Assembly: GCF_037042905.1 (NCBI RefSeq)
Contig: NC_087251.1
Span: forward strand, 7,566,001 to 7,630,000
Length of the DNA: 64,000 nt
From: Lytechinus pictus
Taxonomy: Eukaryota
Direction: 5' to 3'
Shown: in pieces, positions 3,001 through 63,880 of the stretch
Position numbering within the stretch: the stretch's first letter is position 1
How the letters are laid out: the number at the start of each line of letters is the position of its first letter
Translations under genes and position numbers: made by a program
Notes under the pieces: model-generated
What the model saw: the letters and a program-made list of their open reading frames with translations, nothing else
Databases searched by the model: none
Told to the model about the DNA's origin: nothing

Positions 3001-3604
3001 CATGGTCGATGCTTGAAATTGCTACAAGTATCATATCATGCCATCATTGATATTACTTTCATCTTCACTACAGAGATAATTTTAGGCTAGATTAAAAAAA
3101 AAACAATGTGTTTTTGCCATTTGAAATAATATCACAAGAGAACTAGGCACAATTCTATTCTTGTTTTAACTCTGGATGAAGGCAAAATTTGCCAGTTGAT
3201 GCATTAATGTTCAAGATCATAATATTTTTTTTCACAGTAAAAGTGTGAAGCACAGCTGTTCAAGTATAATCTATTGATTTGATTTTGTATTTAAACAACC
3301 TGTGAATGATGGAATAATTGGTTTTCATATGACATGACAATTAGCACAGGCTGAGAACTTTCTTTGAAAAAGGAGAAGATTGAAAATATTAGTAGCACTT
3401 TGTGCATCTGATAATTGACACAAGTGAATATTTCAGTGTTAAGAAGGTCTAATTTATGTTTGTATCTGATTTTAACAAAAAATTGTTAGCTTCATCAGTT
3501 TATGAATGAAATGAATTGGATTGAATTCCTGTATTTTCTTTTTTTCCTATATAATTTGTCATTGTTAAGAAGAAATGAATTACAATCAAGTTTCCATTAC
3601 TTAA

Positions 3605-4187
3605 AGGAGAATGAAACCCTTGAAACTAGCTGAATCCATATCAAAAAGAAAAATCAAAGAAACATATTGTTGAAAGTTTGAGGAAGATTGAATGAATAAT
3701 AAGAAAGTTATGAGCATTTGAATATTGAGATCACTAGTGCCATGTAGATCCTCCCATCGGCAATGCGACCAAGATCTGTGATATCACACACGTACAACTC
3801 CCTCATTACTTTAGTACTTATTTCACTTATATTCTCACTTTTATAGAGTCTATCACAAGGTGAGGTGTTTTCTTTATGAGATGACAAGTACAGAGGTTTC
3901 ACAACATTATATCATTGATGAATCGTTTGTCATATGATTAGAATGAGCAAAAAGAGATGTTTTGGGGTATATTATCAGTGTCCGAATGGGAGAGTTGTAC
4001 GTGTGTGACATCACAGATATTGGTCGCATTGCCAATGGGAGGATCTCCATAGCATTAGTGATCTCGACATTCAAATGCTCATAACTCTTTTATTGCTAGT
4101 CCTATTTTACTCAAAGTTTTGTTGATCTTATTCTTTGATTTTTCTGCTTTCACAAAAGCTAACTTGCTCCAAGAGTTTCATTCTCCT
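3605..4187. mobile_element. TTAA-flanked MITE, Kolobok-like
   Basis: TTAA|AGGAGAATGAAAC...GTTTCATTCTCCT|TTAA; long imperfect inverted arms. A TTAA target duplication with purine-purine termini is typical of Kolobok. Confidence 0.8.
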
Positions 4188-4799
4188 TTAAATACTTTTC
4201 ATAAACCATTGGAAGCTATATGAAATGTTTCCCATATTCAGCTATACATATTTGCAACGTATCACATATTCAGTTTATTTTGAGTTTAAATTATGCTTTT
4301 GATAATAGATTTGGATTCTTGAATTTCATTCATTTGACTTCATTCATTTGACTTCCACTGACATGTGAATCGTGGAGCAGATAATTAATTTTTATATTAA
4401 CAAGAGAATTTTGCACTATTTCATGTGTGTTAATTTCTGAAATTCAGGACCGTTTTCATTAAAATGTTTTTTTTTTTTAATCAATTCATATAAATTGTAT
4501 TTCTATTCATTTCATATTGATAATAACCGTTTGTACAATGATGTAACTTTGAAAATTATAAGTGCAAATGGAAAAATAGACATGTGAGAAAGCAATTTTG
4601 GAATTATTTCAAAGGTTATAGAAAAATTACTTTCCTAAAATTTTAAAGTGCCAAAATTAGAAGATCATTAATGAATAGGTGGTTACACTTTCACATTGAT
4701 TATTTGCAAAATGAAATAAACTTTTATCAGAATAATGTAAGTTAACAATAAAGTGCTGTATCTGTGCAGTGAAGGTGAGAGAAGGAAAGGGATATTTAT

Positions 4800-4961: not shown

Positions 4962-6086
4962 CAGGAAGGACAGAGACATAGGAAGGTTGATACATTCAGA
5001 GAGAGGGTGAGAAAGAGAAAAGAAAGAGATAAGAGAAAAAGAAGGGGCAAAGAAAAAATGCAATGTAGGAGTCGAAAATGGCAGTGTAATCAATGCAGTG
5101 ACGCACATAGGCAAATTTGTATCACAAAGCCACAGCACCAGCAAGAGAAGAAGCCTGGTATACTGTATGCAGTGACAAGCAAATGATGTATTTAGTCTGA
5201 ATGCGGGCTATGTGCGTACAGACTCTACTCATATTTCAGCAGCTCAGACACAGTGCTCTACAAGAGGTGTGTGTGTGTTGTGTGGGTGTACTGCTGCTCC
5301 ATGGTGGTGGAGGGTGTGTGTTTGTGTGTGTCGCTATAGAGCTAAGGGGACCATCTTGTGCATATGTGTATTGTCATAATAGCGTATGGGGTGTGCGCTT
5401 GTTACTGTAATTGTATGTATGCATGTTATTGGAAGTATCACTCAGTGTGTTATTGAAGAAGCAGTAGTGTTACCATTTTCAAGCATGCAGAAAATGAAGT
5501 ATGCAATGTCATGTCTCAGTATAAGTACCCTCATTCTTTTTGAAAGAAATGAAATTAATTGGAATATATTAGATTCACTTCTCATGTAGATGAAAAGTTT
5601 CCTTTCTTCTCTTTTGTATGAGGATGCACTTTTTCAGCTTTATATAGTGACTCACATATAATACAAATAGGCAATTCCTATTAAGACTGTGCTTGACTTG
5701 CATTTGAAGGTATTGTCAGATGTGATTTGATTCTCTTTGTAACTACTATCTCATGAAGATGTAGAATCATCAATCTGTAATTCATTACTGATATTACATC
5801 TTTAAGGTTCAGTGACTCAAAGTGACCTGTACACATGCTTTCCTGGCACACATTTATACATATATACCCACACAGTCATTCAAACACCCACACCCTTGCA
5901 CACATACCCACACCCACCCTCACACACTCACTGACCTCACCCCTACAACAATGGAATATCCTGTATGCAAAATACATACATCTATAATGTACATTTAATA
6001 AAGGACAATGGGGGTACATCTGATAGCCTGGCAAGTCCTGCTTTAACATGGATAATGAAATAACACTAATGAAATGATAGTATACA

Positions 6087-6549
6087 AATAGCAAATAGGC
6101 ATGAGTGCGATGGTGCAAGATTTCGCATGAGGTGAAAGAAAGATGCTCTAGTCAACGAGGCGTTAGCCGAGTTGAATAGTGTTCCTTTCACCAAATGCGA
6201 AATCTTGCAGCATCGCACGAATAAGAATATTCGCTGTATGTGTTGTACAACGCCTCAGAGTTTAGCGAAAATATAAAAAAAAGGAAAAGTTTTTCCCTGC
6301 AATATTCTATGAATAGGGAGCAAAAATATTGAAAGCAAAAAGCAAAATCTCACAAGCGCACATCACATGACCTGGAGCGGCATTGCGCATGTAGCCAGCA
6401 AGCTATACGCGTATTTCACCGTCATTTTTTACTGAGCGAAATGAATCATATTGTGACGTCACCTCCTAAAGCCGTGCAACGGTACAAATGTTTGACATTC
6501 AGCCTCCCATTTGCTCGCATACAACAAGCTAAGTAGGCGTTGTACAATA
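6087..6549. mobile_element. Interspersed repeat with internal hairpins, possibly a Crypton-like non-autonomous element
   Basis: CpG-rich relative to flanks; hairpin CAACGAGGCG-TTA-GCCGAGTTG; inverted pairs TGCAAGATTTCGCAT/ATGCGAAATCTTGCA and TTGTACAACGCCT/AGGCGTTGTACAA. Family assignment is from pattern recall only. Confidence 0.4.
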
Positions 6550-6687: not shown

Positions 6688-6784
6688 ATTGAAAAATTGA
6701 TTCAGCGAATGCAAGATGAGAAGAATGGCGTACCTGTCCGGACTGTTAAAAGTTTCATGTCTAAAGTTCCTAGTGTTTTTACAG
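6688..6784 (+). CDS. RGS7: RGS6/7-like (R7 RGS) coding exon, first visible; start of DEP domain
   Basis: tttgcag|ATT...ACAG|gtaaga; translates [32 protein letters not shown](G), matching the RGS7 N-terminal DEP sequence as I recall it ([25 protein letters not shown]). Phase 0 in, phase 1 out. Confidence 0.95.
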
Positions 6785-6994
6785 GTAAGATAATATGAGG
6801 CGCCGAATGTACCAATATTATATAGAACAATTATTTGTTATATAATCATTATTTATTAAATAATAACTATTATTTATATATAATTTACATTTTATTTGTA
6901 AATAACTACTATTATATAAAATATCATTTCTAATTATTTATATATAATTCCAAGTAATACTTCATTATTTGTAAATAATAATAGTTCGACATTC

Positions 6995-7350
6995 CATTAT
7001 TTATAAATAATGATTATTTGTTTTTCATTATTTATAAATAATGATTATTTGTTTTTCATTATTTATAAATAATGATTATTTGTTTTTCATTATTTACAAA
7101 TAATGATTATTTGTTTTTCATTATTTATAAATAATGATTATTTGTTTTTCATTATTTATAAATAATGATTATTTGTTTTTCATTATTTACAAATAATGAT
7201 TATTTGTTTTTCATTATTTATAAATAATGATTATTTGTTTTTCATTATTTATAAATAATGATAATTGGTTTTTCATTATTTATAAATAATGATTATTTGT
7301 TTTTCATTATTTACAAATAATGATTATTTGTTTTTCATTATTTATAAATA
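6995..7350 (+). repeat. 31-bp tandem array, left arm (about 11 units)
   Basis: Unit CATTATTTATAAATAATGATTATTTGTTTTT. Confidence 0.9.
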
Positions 7351-7651
7351 ATTTGTTGAGTTTTCCATTATTTATAAATAATGATTATTTGTTAAATAAT
7401 GAAAACGTCTACTTCATTATTTATAAATAATTTTTTCGAGTGCACCATTATTCTCATTATTTATAAATAATCATTATTTAATGTTCGAGTTTTCCATTAT
7501 TTATAAATAAAGATTATTTGTTAAATAATGAAATATCTACTTCATTATTTATAAATAATAATTTTGTTTCAATATCCCATTAATCATTATTTATAAACAA
7601 TTTTTACAGTTTGCCATTATATACAAATAATCATTATTTATATACAAATAA

Positions 7652-7731
7652 CCATTATTTATTAAATAATGCCATTATTTATTAAATAATGCCATTATTT
7701 ATTAAATAATGCCATTATTTATTAAATAATG
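7652..7731 (+). repeat. 20-bp tandem array, left arm (4 units; 6 units in the right arm at ~9708-9828)
   Basis: Unit GCCATTATTTATTAAATAAT. Confidence 0.9.
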
Positions 7732-10127
7732 GAAAACTCGCTATAACATGCAAATGTGGGACCGCCCATGATATGAATATTCATGATGCGATTTCCTTTT
7801 TCGTGATTTTTCTTCACAAATTTTTGTCCATTTCCTCTTCATAATGACATTTCTTGAAGCAATTTTCTAGGGATATGGTCTGATTGTAATATTCTTCATT
7901 TTCTATATAACTTCGTCTTCGTAGAAATATCAAAAAGTGTAATTTTATACGATTTTTCCTACAGTTCACAATCCCCATAGGCGCGCGTGTACGGTAGGGA
8001 CAACCGGTGAATCGACGGAGTGCTCTTCATCGAAATACTACGTTGGTTGGTCCCCGGAAGTGGCGGGCGGAATTTAGCCCGAATCCTCGATGGAAGTCGA
8101 TCAAGTGCATTTGAGCTGAGAGAGTGAAATATCAGTGTACTTGTACAGGCCCTTCTACTTTTTATAAATATTTCTTGTTGCTTTTTTTGTTAAGTTAATT
8201 TTTCCTGGTGTAGAGATAAGTTTCAGTTCTAATAATGCACTTCAAATACATTTTGGAGTGTCTGTTTGAGGCGTTTGGGGCGATTTCACCCTGGCCCCAA
8301 AATGCTCGCAACGACAATACGGGGGCATGATGACCCCTAAATTTTAAAAAACTTATTTTTCTATTGAAAATTATCACAAAATTCACCAAAAGTGTGCACG
8401 AAAGCCTTCGTATTTCACTTTTAAAACTCCAAAAAGTGCCCAAATGACAAGCTTGGTCGCTTCGCTGTGTCGCTTTCAACTTGAGAAAGTTTACGCGTCT
8501 GCTTCCCCCCCCCTCCTCCGAAAGAAATTATGTATACGGCCATGCTCTAAAGAGCCTGGCACATTGATTTATGTATACTTTCATTTTCATTATTTTTATC
8601 TCATTATCAACATGGCCTTACGCAGAATTTTTTCCAGGGGGGCCGGGGCCGGAGCATGACGCGCGTAAAGTTTCTCAAAAAAATCTTGAAAGCGAGACAG
8701 CGACGCGACCAAGCTCAAATGACAAGCTTGGTCGCTTCGCTTTTTCAAGATTTTTATGAGAAAGTTTACGCGCGTCCTGCTCCCCCCACCCCCCCCCCCC
8801 GGAAAAAATTATGCGTAAGGCCATGATGATAATGAGATAAAAATAATGAAAATGAAGTATACATAAATCAATGTGCCAGGCTCTTTAGAGCATGGCCGTA
8901 TACATAATTTCTTTCGGAGGAGGGGGGGGGGGGGGAAGCAGACGCGTAAACTTTCTCAAGTTGAAAACGACACAGCGAAGCGACCAAGCTTGTCATTTGG
9001 GCACTTTTTGGAGTTTTAAAAGTGAAATACGAAGGCTTTCGTGCACACTTTTGGTGAATTTTGTGATAATTTTCAATAGAAAAATAAGTTTTTAAAAATT
9101 TAGGGGTCATCATGCCCCCGTATTGTCGTTGCGAGCATTTTGGGGCCAGGGTGAAATCGCCCCAAACGCCTCAAACAGACACTCCAAAATGTATTTGAAG
9201 TGCATTATTAGAACTGAAACTTATCTCTACACCAGGAAAAATTAACTTAACAAAAAAAGCAACAAGAAATATTTATAAAAAGTAGAAGGGCCTGTACAAG
9301 TACACTGATATTTCACTCTCTCAGCTCATATGCACTTGATCGACTTCCATCGAGGATTCGGGCTAAATTCCGCCCGCCACTTCCGGGGACCAACCAACGT
9401 AGTATTTCGATGAAGAGCACTCCGTCGATTCACCGGTTGTCCCTACCGTACACGCGCGCCTATGGGGATTGTGAACTGTAGGAAAAATTGTATAAAATTA
9501 CACTTTTTGATATTTCTACGAAGACGAAGTTATATAGAAAATGAAGAATATTACAATCAGACCATATCCCTAGAAAATTGCTTCAAGAAATGTCATTATG
9601 AAGAGGAAATGGACAAAAATTTGTGAAGAAAAATCACGAAAAAGGAAATCGCATCATGAATATTCATATCATGGGCGGTCCCACATTTGCATGTTATAGC
9701 GAGTTTTCCATTATTTAATAAATAATGGCATTATTTAATAAATAATGGCATTATTTAATAAATAATGGCATTATTTAATAAATAATGGCATTATTTAATA
9801 AATAATGGCATTATTTAATAAATAATGGTTATTTGTATATAAATAATGATTATTTGTATATAATGGCAAACTGTAAAAATTGTTTATAAATAATGATTAA
9901 TGGGATATTGAAACAAAATTATTATTTATAAATAATGAAGTAGATATTTCATTATTTAACAAATAATCTTTATTTATAAATAATGGAAAACTCGAACATT
10001 AAATAATGATTATTTATAAATAATGAGAATAATGGTGCACTCGAAAAAATTATTTATAAATAATGAAGTAGACGTTTTCATTATTTAACAAATAATCATT
10101 ATTTATAAATAATGGAAAACTCAACAA

Positions 10128-10516
10128 ATTATTTATAAATAATGAAAAACAAATAATCATTATTTATAAATAATGAAAAACAAATAATCATTATTTGTAA
10201 ATAATGAAAAACAAATAATCATTATTTATAAATAATGAAAAACCAATTATCATTATTTATAAATAATGAAAAACAAATAATCATTATTTATAAATAATGA
10301 AAAACAAATAATCATTATTTGTAAATAATGAAAAACAAATAATCATTATTTATAAATAATGAAAAACAAATAATCATTATTTATAAATAATGAAAAACAA
10401 ATAATCATTATTTGTAAATAATGAAAAACAAATAATCATTATTTATAAATAATGAAAAACAAATAATCATTATTTATAAATAATGAAAAACAAATAATCA
10501 TTATTTATAAATAATG
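10128..10516 (-). repeat. 31-bp tandem array, right arm (about 12 units)
   Basis: Reverse complement of the left-arm array with one extra unit. Confidence 0.9.
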
Positions 10517-12068
10517 GAATGTCGAACTATTATTATTTACAAATAATGAAGTATTACTTGGAATTATATATAAATAATTAGAAATGATATTTTATATAAT
10601 AGTAGTTATTTACAAATAAAATGTAAATTATATATAAATAATAGTTATTATTTAATAAATAATGATTATATAACAAATAATTGTTCTATATAATATTGGT
10701 ACATTCGGCGCCTCATAAGATAACCCCAAATTTATAACTATCAATTTCATTTAACCACTGTATGTAGTATCATTGAGTGCAATAATCTGATACAGAATGT
10801 AATTTTGTAGTAGCAATGCTTCTTGATCTATTCCAATGAGCTTGTCTCATAGAAACCAAGTCATGTACATCCTATCCCAAATCCTGATAATTTACAAGAG
10901 TGAAATATTCATATTCACTCTCTATTTTAAGTTCCTTTATTTCTACAAGATGTTTGTATTAATTTTTTATAAAGATTTATTATGTATGTATGAATTTACA
11001 TTACAAGACTGGAAGGGGTGAACAGGAAAAGAAAGGAAAGGGAATTGGGACTTTTACCAATATTTCCTTTTACAAAGTCTTTTTAGGTTCAAATTAAACT
11101 TGGTCATAAATAAAGAAAAACAAGTATTTTGATGGTTTCCTACATCTAGAAATAATCTAAGGCATTTTATTATTTCAACACAATGGGTTAATCCTCATGT
11201 TAACACTTGCAAAATATGTTGATTGTTTTATTAGATACCTGGGTCAGTTTATTCTTGGATAGCTCCTTGGAAATTTAATTGTGTAAATCATATTAAAGAG
11301 TTAAGCATTGTAATCATGAGATAATGAGTTTGCCGCATGTAATGCCATCTTGCTTGCTTTGTTCATATTTCACAATCTGTCTAAGTTGATTAAACAGCAA
11401 AAGTGAATTATTATCCTTATCTCTTATCTCTATGATGGTGATGATGAAGAAAATATATGGTGGTGATAGTAATAATTGTGATGATGATGATAACAATACC
11501 AAACTGATTACTCACATTGAATAAAATACTTGATAAAGTTTGTTATAAGCTGCATATAGCTATATTTTGTAAATCAATCTTTGAAGTTTTTTATTGTTAA
11601 AGACATCACCCCCCAAACGTATTTATAACCCCAAAATAATATTAAAAAAACAGCATGTGCATGCTTACAAATAAATTAGGGTGATATTTAATGGCTATTA
11701 GATGCCTTTTCTTCTATTGCCTCCCAATTCTGAATCTTTCTTGCCACCTTTCCTCATTTTATCTATCACATCTTCTATTGGATCATTCCCTTTCTTCTCT
11801 CGCATACACCAAATAAACCCTCTCACTAACACCCATTATTTCCCACTCTCTTATTATTTACATTTTGTACCTTCCAAAAAAATATATCCCTCACACATAT
11901 ATTTATTCCTAAATCCCCTCTACGTCTTTCTCCATCTTTTTTTTTTCTCTCTCTCCTATTTCCCTGTTTGATTCTCTTTTGCCCTCCACATCTCTGTCTC
12001 CCTCGTCCCCATCCTATTTTTCCCCTGTCTCTTTCATCCATATCTCTGTCTTTGTCTCTCTTGTGCAG

Positions 12069-12116
12069 GAGCTGATCTGGTTCAATGGTTGATGAAGACG
12101 TTAGATATTGATCAAG
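12069..12116 (+). CDS. RGS7: RGS6/7-like exon (DEP domain)
   Basis: tgtgcag|GA...CAAG|gtaata; (G)ADLVQWLMKTLDIDQ, homologous to GSDIVQWL; 48 nt, phase 1/1. Confidence 0.92.
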
Positions 12117-12627
12117 GTAATACCACAGGTTTGTCAAGTAAAATACATTTAAATAGATTGCAAGATACATGCCACATCTATCAGATGCTAATTGCATTTA
12201 TTGCCAAAGTAATTAGTAGAGGCTACCTGTTTTGCACTACTATAAATCTGTTATTGTTAATGGAAAAAACCTCTTTTAGTTTTGAAACATTAAGTACTGG
12301 TCATTCTGGGCATTTGCCTAATTTCAACCTCCATTTGAACTACTTTCATTTTAATTCATATTTCAAATATAAAACTTTCAGTGTTAGGAGTAGGATGTTT
12401 TTCTAAATTATGATTGTATTGATACTTGCCAGTGAAGTGGAGTTTGTCCCATTATTTAATTATGAAATGTAAATGAATTGTATATATTTCGTTGATATAA
12501 TCATGATATTCATTTGACAAATATATATGTATATGTATCATAGTTTTGCATGAAAGATGATAATGTTGCATACATTTTTATATAAAAATTAAAAGAACTG
12601 TATATTTTCTGTTTGTTTTTGTTCTAG

Positions 12628-16420: not shown

Positions 16421-16710
16421 ATGGACAAATATTGTATAGTTTGTTTTACAGAACACTGTTTCTTTCTAGGGCAAATGTTGGTCCTTAAAAGGACTATCCA
16501 AACTCAACGTTTCGACGAGTGTGTTCTTGTCGTCTCTGAAGACGACAAGAACACACTTTCACTCACACTTACACTCTATCAGTGTAAGTTTTATTTTACG
16601 TCAAGTTTGGGTTGTCCTTTTCAGGACCAACATTTGCCCTAGAAAGATACATGGTGTTCCATGAAACCTACTACACTATTCTTCTTTGCCATGGAAACCT
16701 TCAGAAGTTA
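16421..16710. mobile_element. Palindromic Penelope-like terminal-repeat remnant
   Basis: Inverted arms TCTTTCTAGGGCAAATGTTGGTCCT / AGGACCAACATTTGCCCTAGAAAGA around a core with AACGTTTCGAC and CTGAAGACGAC motifs. Confidence 0.55.
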
Positions 16711-27820: not shown

Positions 27821-28193
27821 GTAATTTTGTTACACATGTGCAAGAACACAATTAGTACCACATACATTCATTGTTTCAAAATGATAATGGTCTGTAGCGC
27901 CATACATTTCAGCATTGCATAAGTGTTTTTAAGACGATGCACGGATGTGTGGTTCTGAGCATGTTAATCATAATTATAATAATAATAAATAAGATTTAAG
28001 AAGTACATTTTCCATCTTAATACCATGCTTTTGCACATGTTTGATGACTTTGTATTAGAAAATTAAATGTTTAGTTAATCAACATTATCTTGAGCACCAT
28101 CAAGATAAGTTGATAAAGTCTATGCCCAGTGTGACACTGACTGTACTGATTAGTAGTGATGACAGTTATACCGTACCATATACAGTACATTAT

Positions 28194-28725
28194 GGGGGGA
28201 TACCAGGCACGACCAAAGCAATGTGTAAAAGGATCTCTTTTTCAAGATTGGGCACGTTAGGTACGTAACGTAATAAGGGTGTCAAAAACACTCAAATACT
28301 GAATATACGTATATTTGGCTAGGAAAGCTACATGTTTACTGTCAAATTTGCAAGGGTATAAAAAATACTAAAATGCTTTATAAAGGATGTACTTTTTGCC
28401 TCAACACTACTTATTTATAGTCCGATTTGAGCGAGGTGTAGGAGGTGGGGTGGTACTAAACCCAACGTGAAGCCAACGTCCTTGATCACGTCCATGACAT
28501 AAGAATTAGAATATCGCTGTACACTACTTGTTTAGGGGATCAATTCAGGGAATACTTGTCACAAGTACTGTTTTGTTTCCAATAGTTGTTAAGGGTAGGA
28601 TTTCACAAGCCAATACTTGTTAAGGGGTGGATTTTCAGAATGTGGAAAATACTTGTTTAGGGTGTTTTTCAAAACCCCATGGTGGCGCCTGGTATCCACT
28701 AGTCAATGGAAGTGGCCCCCATGGG
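28194..28725 (+). mobile_element. MITE, 5'-degraded copy of the 47860-48441 family
   Basis: Shares GTACGTAACGTAATAAGGGTGTCAAAAACACT, TATAAAGGATGTACTTTTTGCC and repeated AATACTTGTT motifs with 47860-48441; flanked by ACATTAT on both sides. Confidence 0.8.
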
Positions 28726-28740
28726 ACATTATACCATATA

Positions 28741-29310
28741 CCGTACATGTAGTATTCAACCCGTTTGGAGAAATTTCTCAAATATATAGAAATAGCGAAT
28801 CTACCTTTTTTTCAGACCTTTCTCATTTCCAAGAGGAAATTCAGAGTTGTCTGTTGTCAGTATTGTTTTATCAATCTGTCGACCGTATGCGCGGGCAATC
28901 AAATAATGTGGCAATGGCTTTTTGCACTAGTATTCAACCTACCAACACTTGTATTTAACCTAGTAATGAAAGATGGCACTGTCTTGCAAACTGCCCTTGC
29001 CCCATCAGACTAAAGACTTGACCATTTTGGGATGAGACCAAATGGGGAATTAGTCAAAGCAAGAAATTGACATAGATCCGGTTGAGCAATCATTTGAGAT
29101 GCATACAATCACTAGGTTGAATCTGATCTAGTGCAAAATACCATTGCTGTTTAATTCAATCCTCCATGCATACAGTGAACAGATTGATACAGAAAATACT
29201 GACAACAGACTACCCTGAAAAATGAGAAAGGTCTGAAATTACGATAAATTCCCTTTTTCTAAATATTTGGGGAAGTTCTCCAAATGGGTTGAATACTAGT
29301 GCATGTACGG
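28741..29310. mobile_element. TA-flanked MITE (Tc1/mariner-pogo-like)
   Basis: TA|CCGTACATG..TAGTATTCAACCCGTTTGGAGAA ... TTCTCCAAATGGGTTGAATACTA..CATGTACGG|TA; inverted arms of about 120 bp. Confidence 0.75.
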
Positions 29311-29777
29311 TATTCTTAATGTCTACATTCAAATTTATAGTGTCTAATAATAAAAATCAACATGCTCTTAAGCATTCACAACCTGAAGTTCTAAATGCTT
29401 AATCAAATCAAGTCAGTAAAGGATATATATCCATGTGATGCAGACTGAATATCCACACTGATGACTTTAATGACAATTGAAGCCAAACATTCCTAGCACC
29501 TACAGTAAATCTATAATTATGACTTGTCAAAAAGGAAAGAATCTTGATTTAATGAAAGAAAGTGATTTGAATTTATAGACATTTTGCTTGATTTGAAGAA
29601 GCCAGTGTAAATAGATAATCATTCATATCAGCAGTGATGACAAATAAAGCCACATATTGTGTGTCTACAGTTATACATTTGGCCGCATTTTAATTTCATG
29701 CAGAACTATAATACGGGAATGATGGAAATGAAACGAAAAGCCCAAATAGGAAATTTATTGCGTTGCTACGATTTCTG

Positions 29778-39800: not shown

Positions 39801-42068
39801 GTGTGGTGTGTTTCTAGGTGACCAAAAGTATTAGTCATACTCGTCCAGATGATTGAATTTATAGACACACACAATGCACACACAGACACGTGTACTATAT
39901 TTCCATGGTCGGCAGACTGGAGGTAGAATGGTATAAGAGGAAACAGGAAATAGTTCCAAATAATTCCCTCCCTCTCTCCCTCCCTCTGTCTATCCCTGGT
40001 TGGTAATCTAAGCCATGCGTACATTGTAATATACTGGTCCCATCAAACTTCCTGTGGTTTATTCTTTGTTTGGATTTAGTTTCTATTCACACAGTTTCTA
40101 TTACTCTCCTATCTGACTTGGCATTGGATCACTTGATAGTTTCACAAGTATTACAGAAATACATACATGTATATACTTCTCTGAGTGGAGCTACAATGGT
40201 TGGAGGAGCTTCTTTCTTCATTTCATCTTGTATAAGGATGGATGTTTACAAAGACCATGTGTGATGCCCAGGGTGTGATGTGATCTTTCAGAATCAGAAA
40301 TTGCCATTTGCATGTGTGTGCTATCGGAGGAAAATACTCACACGGAATTCAAGTGAATCAAATAAGTTGAAGATCATGATCTGATGTGGCAAGAATTATT
40401 ACCGAGGTCATTGCGAGGGGTGTTCCTTAATGGATTAAAGATCAACCTTGACTTGGAGTTAGGCTATGGTTGGTAAACTACTCATCTCAATCGATAAAAC
40501 AGATCAACAGCACGACTAGTGCAGTGTCCACAGAGTCAAATTGTGCTTATACTTCACTATTTTCTCTGATAGCATGCATAGTTTGATCGCAATTCAAACA
40601 AGGATATCTACATGTGTTGCTGAATTACTTCTCATATTATATGATGTACAGTATATGTGATTTGATGTCAAAGATTATAATATCATCTTGTATTGCTGAC
40701 TGAAATATGGTAAGAACAATATTTTTACTTAAATAAAAGGGAATGTTCTAACTCATACTCTTGTTTTATATTAAAAAAGATGTAATTTATATCTGAATTA
40801 GGCCTTTTATTTTGCAGATGCTGGATACTTTAGATAGAGAAATAAATGTGATTGAGTACATATTCTAATGGTCTTTCCTAGAAACTGAAATATAGCAGTG
40901 ACTGCTGAAAATACAATAAAAACTTGGGACAGTAGAAATATATTTGTAGAAAGGATTATTCACTGACCAAAATATTTGGGAAAGTGATGGAGATTTTTTT
41001 CAATGGAATATGCAATTTGCTTAAATTATTCTTTTTTTTTTGGGGGGGGGGTTATCCGGTCTTGTTTGCAAAGTGACCATGAAATGATTTTGTGCTTTTC
41101 CCATTTTTTCTTTTCCTGTTTTGGTTTGCTTGTTTCCTGTAACTGTTATTATTTTTGCAAATGTATGTATATCTATTTTTACAAATTCAATTTAGTATTT
41201 TCTGTGGCCTTTCATCTTGGAAGTGCATGGGGAAAATTCGAACACTTTTGGACAGTTGACTGCTCGACTTAAATTTTCTTCATAAACTTGATGGAAAGAA
41301 AAAAGAAAATTGAGAGAGAGAGAGATAGCAACTAAAATAGGAAAATGAGAATAATTAAGTCTTTACAAAGTAGTGCATTTTAATTACTGATTTAATAGAA
41401 CATACTAAACATCAATTTAAAAAATAGAGAGAGAGAAGCGGTGGGGGCCATTCTTTCATGACTAATAGATATATTTGAGTGATTCACAAATATAATATCA
41501 TTCATAGCTTCCTAGGAATTACAAAATTATGATGTGAGCCAAAGTATGTTTCAAAGACCAAGAACAACAAGATATTTAACTCGATACATGGAATAAGAAA
41601 TACTGATCATGTTCAAGAGAGCATTGCTAAATTACCTACATGAAATAAATGTTAATTCACATCTTTACATGATACTTTGAAGATTAAAAGTAAGTGACTA
41701 AGTATTTGAATCTGCAAAGTGGGAAATTATCATTACAAAATGGACAAACTGAATCTTTTCGACATGCACTTCAAAAATGCAAATGTTAACAGCCATGATT
41801 TCCCAGTCCAAAGCATTTAGACTATTACGTTAATGTAATCTTTAAACAACGGGGCATTTTTAGTGAAAGTCCCATAATGAAAGTACTGGTTTAAGAGATG
41901 CTGTGTAAAATGGGCTTAAGTGTACACAATCACATTTGATGATCATCTGTCAAGCACCAATAGTTCTGATCACATAGAATAAAGAGATAAAAAGTAAGAC
42001 AAAAAAGGAAGTCAAATGAATTTAATTCAATGATAAAATTTATAATGAACATTTGAAGGGTAACTTAA

Positions 42069-42671
42069 AGGTCAAGTCCACCCCAGAAAATTGTTGATTT
42101 GACTCGATAGAGAAAAATCAAACAAACATAACGCTGCAAATTTCATCGAAATCGGATGTAAAATAAGAAAGTTATGACATTTTTAAGTTTCGCTTATTTT
42201 CACAAAACAGTTCAATGCACAACTCAGCGATATGCAAATGAGAGAGTCGATGATGTCCATCACTCACTATTTCTTTTGTTTTTTATTGTTTGAATAATAC
42301 AATATCTCAAATTTTACAGATTTGAAAATAAGGACCAACTTAACTTAACCATAAACTGTTGAAATAATGGTAATTACACATGTTCAGGGAGAAAATAAAC
42401 TTTGATTCACTTGACAAGGAGGAGAAAATTATAATATTTCATATTTCAGATAATAAAATACAAAAGAAATAGTGAGTGGGTGACGTCATCAGTCTGCCAA
42501 TTTGCACACCGACCAGGATGTGCATATAACTGTTTTGTGAAATTAAGCAAAACTTTAAAATGTCATAACTTTCTTATTTTACACCCGATTTTGATGAAAC
42601 TTTCAGCGTTTTGCTTGTTGAATTTTTCTCCTTTTTTTCAAATCAACTTTTTGTTGGGGTGGACTTGTCCT
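42069..42671. mobile_element. TTAA-flanked MITE, Kolobok-like (second family)
   Basis: TTAA|AGGTCAAGTCCACCCCA...TGGGGTGGACTTGTCCT|TTAA, with long inverted arms. Confidence 0.85.
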
Positions 42672-43330
42672 TTAAGTAACCAATTGTTCATGATTTGTTG
42701 ATGTAACAATATCACAACCTAATCATGCTTATACTTTGATGCCCTAGCTTCTATTGAATTAAAACCTTTGTTTACATGTACACTGTATATGAGGAATTGG
42801 TTTCAGTTTCTTGTAACTTTTTTGACTTAATTGTATTGAGTTCTTCAGTAGCTATGGTATGTACTAACCTACTAATATCTTAATTTGCGCTTGTGATTGT
42901 TTATAGTATGAACAGAACAGGCCTACCAGCAACATTGGTTTTACCAACGTCTAACTGTTACCAGTATGCCGTGAAATTTGTTTACAGGATATATTGCATA
43001 TAGTGCAAACTACACAATGTAGAGTTGAGTGATATATCCATTACCGGTATACCCTTACTGTAACAGATGTAGTAAGAGCCTTCATTGTGCATATGTGATA
43101 TATTTGTATAAAAATGAAATCATGTTTGAATTTGGTATGAGATCAACAAGAGGTAAGTAATTCAGATACATGGATGTAAGTAAAACAAAGATAGTCAGTC
43201 TGGACTTAAATATTTTTCACAATATTGATCCAATGTCTCTGTTTACCACTCAAGCCAGGACATTTCATAATTATGATTGGATGATCTGTTTAGTTTTTAT
43301 GTGGTATTTATTGATTGTGTGTGTGTGTGT

Positions 43331-47859: not shown

Positions 47860-48441
47860 CCCGGGAGAGGCCACTTACATTAACGAGTGGATACCATGCG
47901 CGACCCAAAAAACATGTAAAAAGGATGTCTTTTTCAAGATAGGGCATGTTACGTACGTAACGTAATAAGGGTGTCAAAAACACTAAAATAATGAAAAAAG
48001 GGTATCTATTTTTTATAGGAAAGCTACGTGTTTAGGGTCAAACTTGCGAGGGTATAAAAAATTAAGACTAAAATGTTTTATAAAGGATGTACTTTTTGCC
48101 CCAAGAGTCACCACTACATGTGTTTAGAGTACAATTTGCACGAGGTGTTGTGAGGTGGGGCTGTACTAAACCCAATGATGTAGGTAAAACCAACGACCGA
48201 CGTCGTCCGTGGCATAACAATTGAAATATCGCTGTACTTGTTTAGGGGTTCAATTCAGGGAATACTTGCCAAGAGTATCGTTTTGTTTCCAATACTTGGG
48301 TAGGGTTTCACACGGCAATACTTGTGAAGGGGTGCATTTTCAGAATATGGAAAATACGTGTTGGATGCTTTTCGAGACCCCATGGTCGCTCATGGTATCC
48401 ACTCGTCAATAGAAGTGGCCCCCCCCCCCCCCCCCCCCGGG
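47860..48441. mobile_element. CCCGGG-ended MITE with an ~8-bp target duplication
   Basis: TIRs GGCCACTTACATTAACGAGTGGATACCATG / CATGGTATCCACTCGTCAATAGAAGTGGCC; flanks ATCGAAGC and ATCGGAGC. Confidence 0.85.
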
Positions 48442-54038: not shown

Positions 54039-57000
54039 GTAATTCATCTATTTTCGGAGTCCCCTTTTTCACACTTTCAAGAGACAGTTGCTTTTTTTTC
54101 TCTAATTTTTATGATAAATTTCATCTTTTCACCTAGCTGTTCACTTTGTCTTCATTTCATTCATATTTTCACAGTATTTCAATGTTTCTCCAGTTTACCT
54201 TACTCGTCTTTACATGTACTGTGCTATTAATCATCTAGTTTGCTGCATACACAATGGTTCTCATCTCTCGTTAACCAAGCACCATTATTCATCATATTTT
54301 TAAAAAAGCATCTTCATTCGTCAATATCAGGGTTTAATCAGAATTACTGGAACAATTTTGTCTGTTTTCAGATTTTAATTTCAGTTATTTCATGGAAATC
54401 CTTGTCCTGTTCATTAGGTTTAGGACTGTTTTTGCTTCTTCAGATATTACTGCAGCCCTGGTTTATATGAAATTTGCACTGGATGTTTAGTTAACATTGA
54501 AAACACCCCCCCCCCCCCAAAAAAAGTGATGATTCGAGAAAAATTACATTATGAAAATACCAAAGCACTTTGAGGTAATTGATGCGATGCAACTATCCAA
54601 TACTTGATTCAGGAAGACAACTATCTGGCATTGTGATACATATAATTGGCTTAACCTAAGCAAGACGAAAATAGAGAAAAGAATGTTGAAATAAAAAGTT
54701 TGACTTATAAAAAGAGAGATGCTTGCCTGCATTCTATATCTTGCACATCGCTATTAATAGTTATCGTTCTCACATAGCAGTATCATATCTATCCAGCTCT
54801 TTAGTAGTATTTTTCAAGTTACACTGTCTGCTCATGCCTAAAATGTTTCATTTCAGCATTCCACATTTCTGAGAAAAGTGGCCTTAGATGTTACCTTACA
54901 GCATGACCCATCCATATAGGAGTGCTTTTTCACTCTTAAGATTGATTTGATATTTAGTACTTGTAATGTAGGATAGATCAATCCAGAGATGTGTAGCTTG
55001 AAAATGCTTCAAGAATTTGATTTTTCATTTGTTTTCTTTAAATAATAGGCCATACTGTGAACCGCTTACCAATCAATTATAAATTATTTTGCTTCATTTT
55101 AAGCTTTGATCATGTGATGCTTTAAAGGGTTAAGATTTTCTTTGTTTTAATGAAAAGAATTTAAAAGATTTCATAGGAATGTGATCCTTGGCACTTCAGT
55201 GAAATGAATATTATAAAAAAATATGAAAATATATACATTTGTATAGATGAAGTCTGTAGAAATATCCTCATAATCAAAATATGTTTGCTCTGGGGTGTTT
55301 CATGCAGTAACACACACAAAAAAATACTTTTCATAGAAAAGGTTACAAAAAAAATATTAATGTTCCAACCAATGATCTACTAGTCTCCTACTCCAGACTT
55401 TAAATTATGTTGGATTTTTTTCTCATCTGTCACTGAGCTTCAATTAATCTTTCAAATTATGTAATCCGTGTTTCTTAGATAATGTGATAAGGCATCAATA
55501 AGAAGCTTTAAAGCTACCCCTGCTTTCTTCCTCTTTACCTTCAGCCATGAAAACATCAAACAAGCATACACAAATAGCATGTCATACATCTCAGAGAACT
55601 CCTTTCTTTAGTATTCTTTTCATCATTGTATCATCTATACTAACCATCATCTCATTTATTTAGCCTGTGTTTTTGTTTCATGTGTTTACTTGTGTCATGT
55701 ATAAGGGCAGTCACTGAAACACAGAGTAGCCAAGTCTATTGGGTAGTCTGTCATCATTCATCACAGAACTTAGAATATCTCATACCTCCATTAGATTGTT
55801 AATGAGATTTGTAAACCTAAAGTGCATTGTAATTTAACAAAATTTGTGTCATGTTGTCATTATAACACTTAGCTCATTTTCCCTTAATAGAAACTAATGC
55901 ACTAACAATAACATTTTGTTGTTTTTACATGAAGAACAGCACTGTAATTCGATATGTGTTTGTCTGAAGAGATAAGATAATGTAGGATATTTTTTTCTTA
56001 AGTTCATTGTTTGTAGAGGTGTTTTGTTAGAATCAAGTTAAAACTAGCCTGGAGGTGAAATTATCAGCTCAAAATAATCAAATTTTGATATGATTATCAT
56101 AGTGAATTACACATCTAAATAATTTTAAATAGTTCACAATTACTTTCCAAATTTAATGAAAAGAATCGTTCTATAAATTCATTTTTCCGACACCCAATTT
56201 TCTTAATTCACTTTTTTGTACAGGCAGAATTAACATTATGGGATTGGCCGTTTGGTAATGAATATTCATTCATCACTTTCTAATGTAATTTTCATTAAGA
56301 GAGATGATCAATCACGCTTTTCATTATTGGCAGATTTTATCTGTGGGATAACCATGTTACATTCCTTTTTAAAAATCAATAATCACTTTTAGTTGGAGAA
56401 TTTTTAATTGAGTAAAAAAATTTGTAATCTCTAGAATGTGTACTTTGATTCAGGGATTGAAATGTCATAGAATTTTTATATGGGGGGGGGGGGGTAGCAT
56501 CAAACGTTAAAGAGCAAAGTGACTGAACATCTCTAATTGTATATTCAGTGCAGCTAGCAAACGGAAGATACCTTGTTATGCCGGGGCAGACACCAAACCA
56601 TCTGGCTGGGGTGCAATTTCATTCCATATACAGAAGTAATGAATATTCATGACCAAAAGGCCAATTACAGAATCAAAATTCTGCCTGCACAAAAGTTAAT
56701 GGGAAAATGGGGAGTCAGGAAAATGTGGTCACATAATGGAAACACACATTATTAACTCCCTTAAAGGTCACATTATTATTTATTACATGTTGAAATGAGT
56801 TGAAGTATTAAACATCAGTTTATATTTTAGGCTTAGTTTATTCATCAAAATTTGTTGTCTTTATGATTTGATCACAACCCCCCCTCCCCAAATATCTTTT
56901 GAGATGCGATTAACTGATTTATATTTTCCCAGGTACTTTTTAAAAATTACTTTTGATACATGATGTAACTTTGGGACCAAAGATAAAACTTGTCTTTGTT

Positions 57001-63343: not shown

Positions 63344-63880
63344 CAGTGCATCCCAGAAAAAAACGGAACCGAGAATAATTGATGATTGATAAAAACGCAA
63401 TCACAAATACAATAGACAAATTACCTATCATTGCAAAGCTTAGAATCTCTCCTCTTTCACCTGGTAGAACTCAAAAGAAAATCACATGTCTAAATAGTTC
63501 AATATCTGCTCTTTAATTTGATACCTCAATCACATAAAAAATAATGGTCATCTCAAATAACAAAGTTCTGTTTATTTCAAATAATACTTGAATTTCAATA
63601 ATTTTACAAAATGAAGATGTTTTACTTGCTTGCTGTCCTCAACACCCTGTTTTGTTGACGGTCAGCCATGCATAAATTCTTTTGTTAACCATGCGACAGC
63701 TACTTGAGGGAATCTGTGAAAAAACATTTGTTTTATGAAATTTATGGAGTTACCAGTACAAGCATTATTTCAAAGAGACAACTTTGTTATTTCCTGACCA
63801 TTTTTTGTGATTTGGGTTATCAAACTAACAAGCAGATATCAAATAAATAATTCTCTGTTTTGTTATTTCTGGTTGCACTA
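63344..63880. mobile_element. TA-flanked Tc1/mariner-like MITE
   Basis: TA|CAGTGCATCCCAGAAAAAAACGGAACCGAGAATAATT ... AATAATTCTCTGTTTTGTTATTTCTGGTTGCACTA|TA. Confidence 0.7.

Follow-up and report, generated by a model that had tools for sequence, protein, structure and literature searches.

A 3.9-kb palindrome in an RGS7 intron of Lytechinus pictus is mirrored about a small MITE-like hairpin

A stretch of 64,000 nucleotides of the sea urchin Lytechinus pictus (RefSeq assembly GCF_037042905.1, contig NC_087251.1, positions 7,566,001 to 7,630,000 of the forward strand; hereafter the window, whose own numbering is used throughout) contains a palindromic element of 3,924 bp within an intron of RGS7. 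The palindrome is a real, modest variation on the known class of foldback elements, and its mirror axis is the axis of a small, likely older element resembling a miniature inverted-repeat transposable element (MITE). The element was very likely inserted as a transposon. Taken as a whole, the reading towards which we lean is that the gene-less palindrome is a non-autonomous foldback element, that it was mobilised in trans by an IS3EU/GingerRoot-type enzyme, and that its mirror form stems from the copying of one element end, with a nested, folded-back MITE as the primer.

The palindrome and its mirror axis

Self-comparison of the window by BLAST gave a single inverted match (6794-10717). Together with an alignment of the arms, it bears out an earlier model annotation based on the letters alone (the sequence-only reading), which had described an inverted repeat of about 3.9 kb with arms of about 1.92 and 1.99 kb around a 9-nucleotide loop: the left arm (6794-8715) is 1,922 bp long and the right arm (8725-10717) 1,993 bp. 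With the central 8611-8825 excluded, 1,811 of 1,816 aligned bases match between the arms. The five substitutions (7951, 8111, 8346, 8473 and 8610), three of which had been named when the arms were first said to differ by only a few, are accompanied by two homopolymer indels (8504 and 8579), and the outermost 1,157 bp of the arms are free of substitutions. Exact inverted pairing runs uninterrupted for up to 559 bp, compared with a maximum of 24 in 100 shuffled sequences and with 13-30 in 15 other stretches of the window of equal size. The surplus of the right arm consists of one 31-bp unit and two 20-bp units, as had been noted, but these account exactly for the 71-nucleotide difference in arm length (31+40) only because four minor indels (+5, -1, +2 and -6) sum to zero.

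The element had also been called near-perfect and loop-less, which holds outside the centre but not within it, where 215 bp pair at just 88 of 99 bases; the effective spacer between the arms is this separate imperfect hairpin and not the 9-nucleotide loop alone. Identity changes abruptly at the terminus of this hairpin, the arms having 5 mismatches in 1,816 bases and the centre 11 in 99 (Fisher P 1.4e-11). The central 215 bp are like a MITE in being short and non-coding, with terminal inverted repeats (TIRs) and a defined terminus. Three copies of the MITE end can be compared, the third being a diverged copy present in each arm; their likeness ends at CCATG, beyond which they diverge (next bases C, T and A), and CCATG is therefore a true terminus. 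The mirror axis of the large palindrome is the axis of this small MITE-like element. No left-end partner of the third copy (8440-8544) was found in the inner arm, and beyond the element the window yielded no further MITE copy at E<0.1. Apart from its first base (A at 8826, opposite A at 8610), the right flank of the MITE repeats the left flank in inverted and not in direct orientation. The probability that one of five substitutions would hit 8610/8826 by chance is 0.003 (post hoc). The A at 8826 also equals the first of the 8 letters that precede the MITE, as expected of a target duplication, a one-base match that is weak and assumes a length of 8 bp.

Contigs of four public sequencing runs from four studies (here X1, X2, X4 and X11; 24 runs were listed, none of RNA) were aligned over 7735-8890 only. 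The inner arm is present in contigs of all four runs, with variants, and in 312 pieces in X11, and the bin 8866-8890 has zero cover in each of the four. In X2 the 8 pieces listed, of 13 aligned, tile 7735-8856, none of the 13 is only partly aligned, and both centre junctions are bridged with at least 31 letters. One X2 contig begins at 8580 and another stops at 8856, mirror positions that are each 30 bases from 8610/8826; the graph therefore branches at this mismatch, which is common to another run. At 8111 and 8346 all four runs carry the right-arm letter, and at 7951 and 8473 no alternative letter is listed; the four substitutions, which differ from the majority letter at two sites per arm, therefore look private to this copy. 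Depth over the arm is about twice that over the centre-left (86-111 compared with 42-44 in X2, and 14 compared with 7-8 in X1), although depth is no copy number.

At 8504 and 8530, T and A are found in both arms of this copy, whereas C occupies both positions in an X1 contig linking 8464-8694 and in most of the X11 depth, and 8530 in X2; the X11 pieces in this comparison may stem from a related abundant repeat. That these letters are common to both arms, unlike those of most public contigs, suggests arm-to-arm conversion. There is a reasonable likelihood that such conversion keeps the arms alike, and that the imperfect centre would limit extrusion of a cruciform. Of the earlier proposal that the element is very young or actively homogenised, homogenisation is thus upheld to some degree; arm identity does not date the copy, as conversion may reset it. 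Within the hairpin, G at 8702 pairs here with the opposite MITE half, while C is found in X1, X2 and most of X11, possibly reflecting local repair.

Priming at one specific site is indicated by the axis, the sharp step in identity and the one mismatch found also in another run. We somewhat favour an origin by a break and MITE-primed copying of the left end, from an ancestral element end that would have held old repeat fragments and a nested 215-bp MITE. A break to the right of the MITE would have been followed by resection, the 3' strand would have paired with the other inverted repeat of the MITE, and from there it would have copied the left end, through either snap-back synthesis or gap repair with a template switch. 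Of the original right flank of the MITE, the A at 8826 would then be all that is left, and the presence of the 8610/8826 mismatch in another run is what snap-back priming on the MITE would predict. In yeast, inverted repeats close to a break are an established site of foldback priming (PMC10622511), and Galileo elements are reported to have extended their TIRs and to have acquired nested elements in both of them (PMC3573991, PMC4168063). It is a tentative suggestion that the element bears a birth scar of this kind, in which the snap-back that gave a mobile 3.9-kb palindrome was primed, within an IS3EU-type element, by a nested MITE from a different family, with one base of the old flank left in place.

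If the order of events were reversed, with the palindrome forming first on a short CATG-centred hairpin and the MITE (ends GCC..GGC) entering later at its tip with a 4-bp CATG duplication, the MITE would have had to hit the axis of a 3.7-kb palindrome precisely. CATG, which occurs at the two MITE ends and again where the third copy stops, might represent a fixed target, and foldbacks are reported to be seeded by short natural inverted repeats (PMC10622511); the A:A mismatch would then belong to the old tip, and better survival of interrupted palindromes would have let this type of copy spread. Divergence between the MITE halves, however, greatly exceeds that between the arms, even if some MITEs may have imperfect ends from the outset, and a later MITE seems unlikely.

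Termini, superfamily and mobilisation

The element ends are TATGAGG...CCTCATA, that is TAT..ATA, and the flanking target duplication of the sequence-only reading is found as an exact AGATAA on both sides. Among 12 boundary offsets, this is the one symmetric option with an exact duplication of more than 2 bp, and an exact duplication of 6-11 bp occurred in 0.09% of 200,000 random position pairs. IS3EU elements are described as having TA..TA termini and duplications usually of 6 bp (PMC10045372), and GingerRoot elements as having TA..TA termini in 72 of 77 cases and a 6-bp duplication (PMC6839031); both features are present here, in a single copy. The Repbase rule for non-autonomous elements is given as an equal duplication length together with 11 terminal bases that align to a known member (PMC4455052). 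Repeat tables published for two further sea urchins include IS3EU. The ends fit IS3EU/GingerRoot and not the Mutator-type FB or TU, and on these terminal features membership is likely.

Transposition would have been by cut-and-paste, with the enzyme supplied in trans by an IS3EU/GingerRoot-type partner. The enzyme was probably of this type, and the CATTATTT arrays of the outer arm domains may well act as extra transposase binding sites, by analogy with the tandem repeats of Galileo TIRs, in which transposase sites are reported (PMC3688188). There are 44 CATTATTT half-sites in the left 938 bp (6794-7731), compared with 22 in the remaining window outside the element, and the order of unit variants is common to both arms.

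Other families were considered and set aside. The FB elements and the TU elements of sea urchins are foldback elements, and TU has an 8-bp duplication and 15-bp outer repeats; the units here are 31 and 20 bp, and an 8-bp duplication needs a mismatch or asymmetric ends. A Mutator-type foldback (Tm1, FB) was rejected, as no 9-bp duplication with 0-1 mismatch was found at any of the 12 offsets. Polinton/Maverick elements share the 6-bp duplication, but AG-type termini would be expected of them in place of TA..TA, and for Ginger2/TDD, of which TG..CA termini and 6 bp are expected, a TG..CA boundary here gives an exact duplication of just 2 bp (PMC6839031 for both expectations). No second copy of the element terminus was found within the window. 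An 18-base terminus pattern had no match in viral contigs, and a 20-base pattern had one in metagenome contigs, of 21-23 bases only and amid unrelated prokaryote-like reading frames, which is attributed to chance.

The same foldback might belong instead to another superfamily, either Tc1/mariner-like (TG..CA ends with a TA duplication) or hAT-like (an 8-bp duplication with one mutation). The ends stay symmetric under both boundary sets, and an 8-bp direct repeat, TAAGATAA, is available with asymmetric ends. On the first of these assignments, however, the 6-bp match would be a coincidence (about 0.001), and the second needs a mutation in 8 bases although no substitution is present in the outer 1,157 bp of arm sequence, a difference that conversion confined to the arms could explain; assignment to either is distinctly unlikely.

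Several observations weigh against the proposed MITE-primed origin and IS3EU/GingerRoot-type mobilisation. The flanks were seen for one copy only, and alternative boundaries fit (TG..CA with a TA duplication, or AT..AT with an 8-bp duplication containing one mismatch), while GingerRoot TIRs are given as 100-150 bp (PMC6839031) compared with arms of about 1.9 kb here. No contig spans the whole of 7735-8890, the loop is crossed with just 17 letters on its right, X4 has zero cover over 8515-8748, and the centre-right pieces of X2 have an unexplained depth of 7-14 in place of 42-44; X2 could also be the source individual, the rare letters of this copy having dropped out. No non-palindromic progenitor was seen, with no loose end at 8611 or 8825 among the 13 of 75 loose ends listed, and the gradient of arm differences from tip to centre is weak (P 0.022, four substitutions, post hoc). 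The foldback inverted duplications of yeast are described as chromosome-scale events on 3-15 bp repeats in nuclease mutants, healed by telomere capture (PMC10622511), and offer an analogy only.

Host intron and content of the element

The host gene had been called RGS7-like. For one exon, identity to RGS7 of L. pictus, L. variegatus and Strongylocentrotus purpuratus is 100%; two others, more variable, match Lytechinus RGS7 in full and that of S. purpuratus at 92-93%. The exon blocks found follow one another in sequence on the + strand between about 6690 and 58,450, the host gene is intact, and its reading frame continues across the invaded intron. The invaded intron is 5,284 nucleotides long, compared with 1,354 without the insertion, and the element starts at intron position +10, that is 9 bp into the intron (Table 1). 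The donor site is untouched, and splicing is therefore predicted to proceed; for the host, the element is likely an ordinary, tolerated intronic insertion. An alternative donor 12 bases downstream of the following exon (12117-12128) would insert GNTT, as in Lytechinus proteins P0004 and P0006, unlike P0005.

Inside the element there are 12 stop-to-stop frames of 63-110 amino acids, in agreement with the earlier statement that it has no open reading frame; six of the 12 were scanned against Pfam, with none matching at the cutoff and one match below it (DUF6165, E 0.028). No frame for an integrase-like DDE transposase is found in the element, as expected for a non-autonomous copy. The pre-mRNA is predicted to form a hairpin of about 1,900 pairs, in which perfect runs reach 521, 337 and 299 bp; the sequence-only reading proposed it as a potential ADAR or Dicer substrate. 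Rfam gave no family at gathering score, the seven matches, all to miRNA hairpin models, lying far below it. On the RGS7 sense strand, six AATAAA words occur in the right 20-bp array (9717-9817); these are possible early polyadenylation signals and are paired in the predicted hairpin.

Such a hairpin, placed 9 bp from a donor and about 1,900 pairs long, could be taken for a regulatory device selected by the host, as a source of double-stranded RNA or a control of RGS7 splicing; the transposon ends and duplication, the occurrence of related variant sequence in several runs and the lack of any Rfam family at gathering score make this very unlikely. That the palindrome is a fold-back read or an assembly artefact is hardly credible, since the inner arm is present in all four runs and the centre is tiled by one of them, with the X2 contigs containing both centre junctions and the 8610/8826 branch, and since unit number and 5 sites distinguish the two arms, AGATAA is exactly duplicated and the RGS7 exons continue beyond the element in order and on one strand, even though no long read or single contig was seen to span the element and the contigs were compared over 7735-8890 only.

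Table 1. Positions of the element, its parts and the adjoining RGS7 exons in the window
Feature	Position	Strand	Description
RGS7 coding exon 5' of the insertion	6688..6784	+	Donor GTAAGA at 6785 intact
Left target-site duplication	6788..6793	+	AGATAA; intron positions +4 to +9
Left terminus	6794..6846	+	Starts TATGAGGCGCCG; identical to right terminus
Left outer domain	6847..7731	+	13% GC; CATTATTT half-sites and 16-20 bp palindromes; 31-bp array 6961-7393; 20-bp array 7612-7731
Left inner domain, non-repetitive	7732..8439	+	About 8359-8470 common to a separate, very abundant repeat
Third, diverged copy of right end of MITE-like family	8440..8544	+	Includes the 9-nucleotide loop letters; ends CCATG; present in each arm
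Linker S, 66 bp	8545..8610	+	Final base 8610 opposite 8826, A:A mismatch
MITE-like hairpin, 215 bp	8611..8825	.	CATGG...CCATG; 88/99 bases paired, 8 gap columns; carries mirror axis
Loop, 9 nucleotides	8716..8724	.	CAAATGACA; same letters recur at 8440-8448
Right arm	8826..10717	-	Mirror of 6794-8610 with an extra 31-bp unit and two extra 20-bp units; end CCTCATA
Right target-site duplication	10718..10723	+	AGATAA; exact match to left copy
Following RGS7 exon	12069..12116	+	Frame carries on across 5,284-nucleotide intron

Several further features of the arms were noted. The abundant repeat that overlaps the inner domain (8359-8470) attains depths as high as 157,000 in X11, and X1 and X11 both have numerous loose ends. 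At 7741, three X11 contigs link the same inner domain to another AT-rich outer sequence, a hint of subfamilies with other arrays. A CpG-rich patch (7950-8110, mirrored at 9330-9490) contains CCGGAAGT at 8054, adjoining GGGCGG at 8065, words that we take to resemble ETS and GC-box promoter words; if the patch were active, two copies might face inward from both arms. A marginal likeness of linker S to 6051-6094 (BLAST E 5e-4; nhmmer E 0.96) was not used.

Elsewhere in the window, older inverted repeats of MITE size, 73-82% identical, are found at 3598-4194, 6105-6218, 16431-16679, 28738-29313, 42042-42694, 56180-56725 and 63502-63839. A dispersed repeat about 550 bp long, whose inverted ends are short, is present in two copies (28186-28720 and 47863-48426) that are 79% identical.

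Comparison with known foldback elements

Structural attributes of foldback elements are found here, with TIRs that form most of the element, a tandem-repeat outer domain that varies between the arms, a non-repetitive inner domain and a target duplication. Likening the element to FB and TU, as the sequence-only reading did, is therefore apt for the structural class but not for the family, as TA..TA ends and a 6-bp duplication fit IS3EU/GingerRoot. From IS3EU/GingerRoot elements, which it resembles in these two features, it differs in having no transposase. The foldback form may have had independent origins in several lineages, and Mutator-type elements are said to account for most foldbacks (PMC4079207). 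Tetris of Drosophila virilis (PMC4079207) and Tm1 of root-knot nematodes, which has a 9-bp duplication (PMC3169594), are described with the same long TIRs and flanking domain, the same tandem-repeat outer and non-repetitive inner domains, unit numbers that differ between the arms and no coding capacity. In contrast to these foldbacks, the element described here has a 6-bp duplication, TA..TA ends and, as its sole middle domain, a nested hairpin. A literature search found no published foldback that is IS3EU-ended or MITE-seeded, Repbase, Dfam and most subscription papers lying outside its range. If the superfamily assignment holds, the foldback form is extended to IS3EU-type ends.

In Galileo, of the P superfamily, the TIRs are reported to have grown by tandem repeats and by recruitment of internal sequence, with nested elements copied into both arms and conversion proposed (PMC3573991, PMC4168063). 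Galileo differs in its 7-8 bp duplication, and a nested MITE as mirror axis is absent from the cases described in these sources. The yeast foldback inverted duplications are likewise described with a pre-existing inverted repeat at the centre and the flank of one side mirrored (PMC10622511). The origin of the very long arms of foldbacks is still argued from end products, as in the case of Galileo, for which TIR extension by repair and conversion is proposed; if the MITE-primed copying suggested here were general, nested MITEs would explain the repeated origin of foldbacks in unrelated transposon superfamilies.

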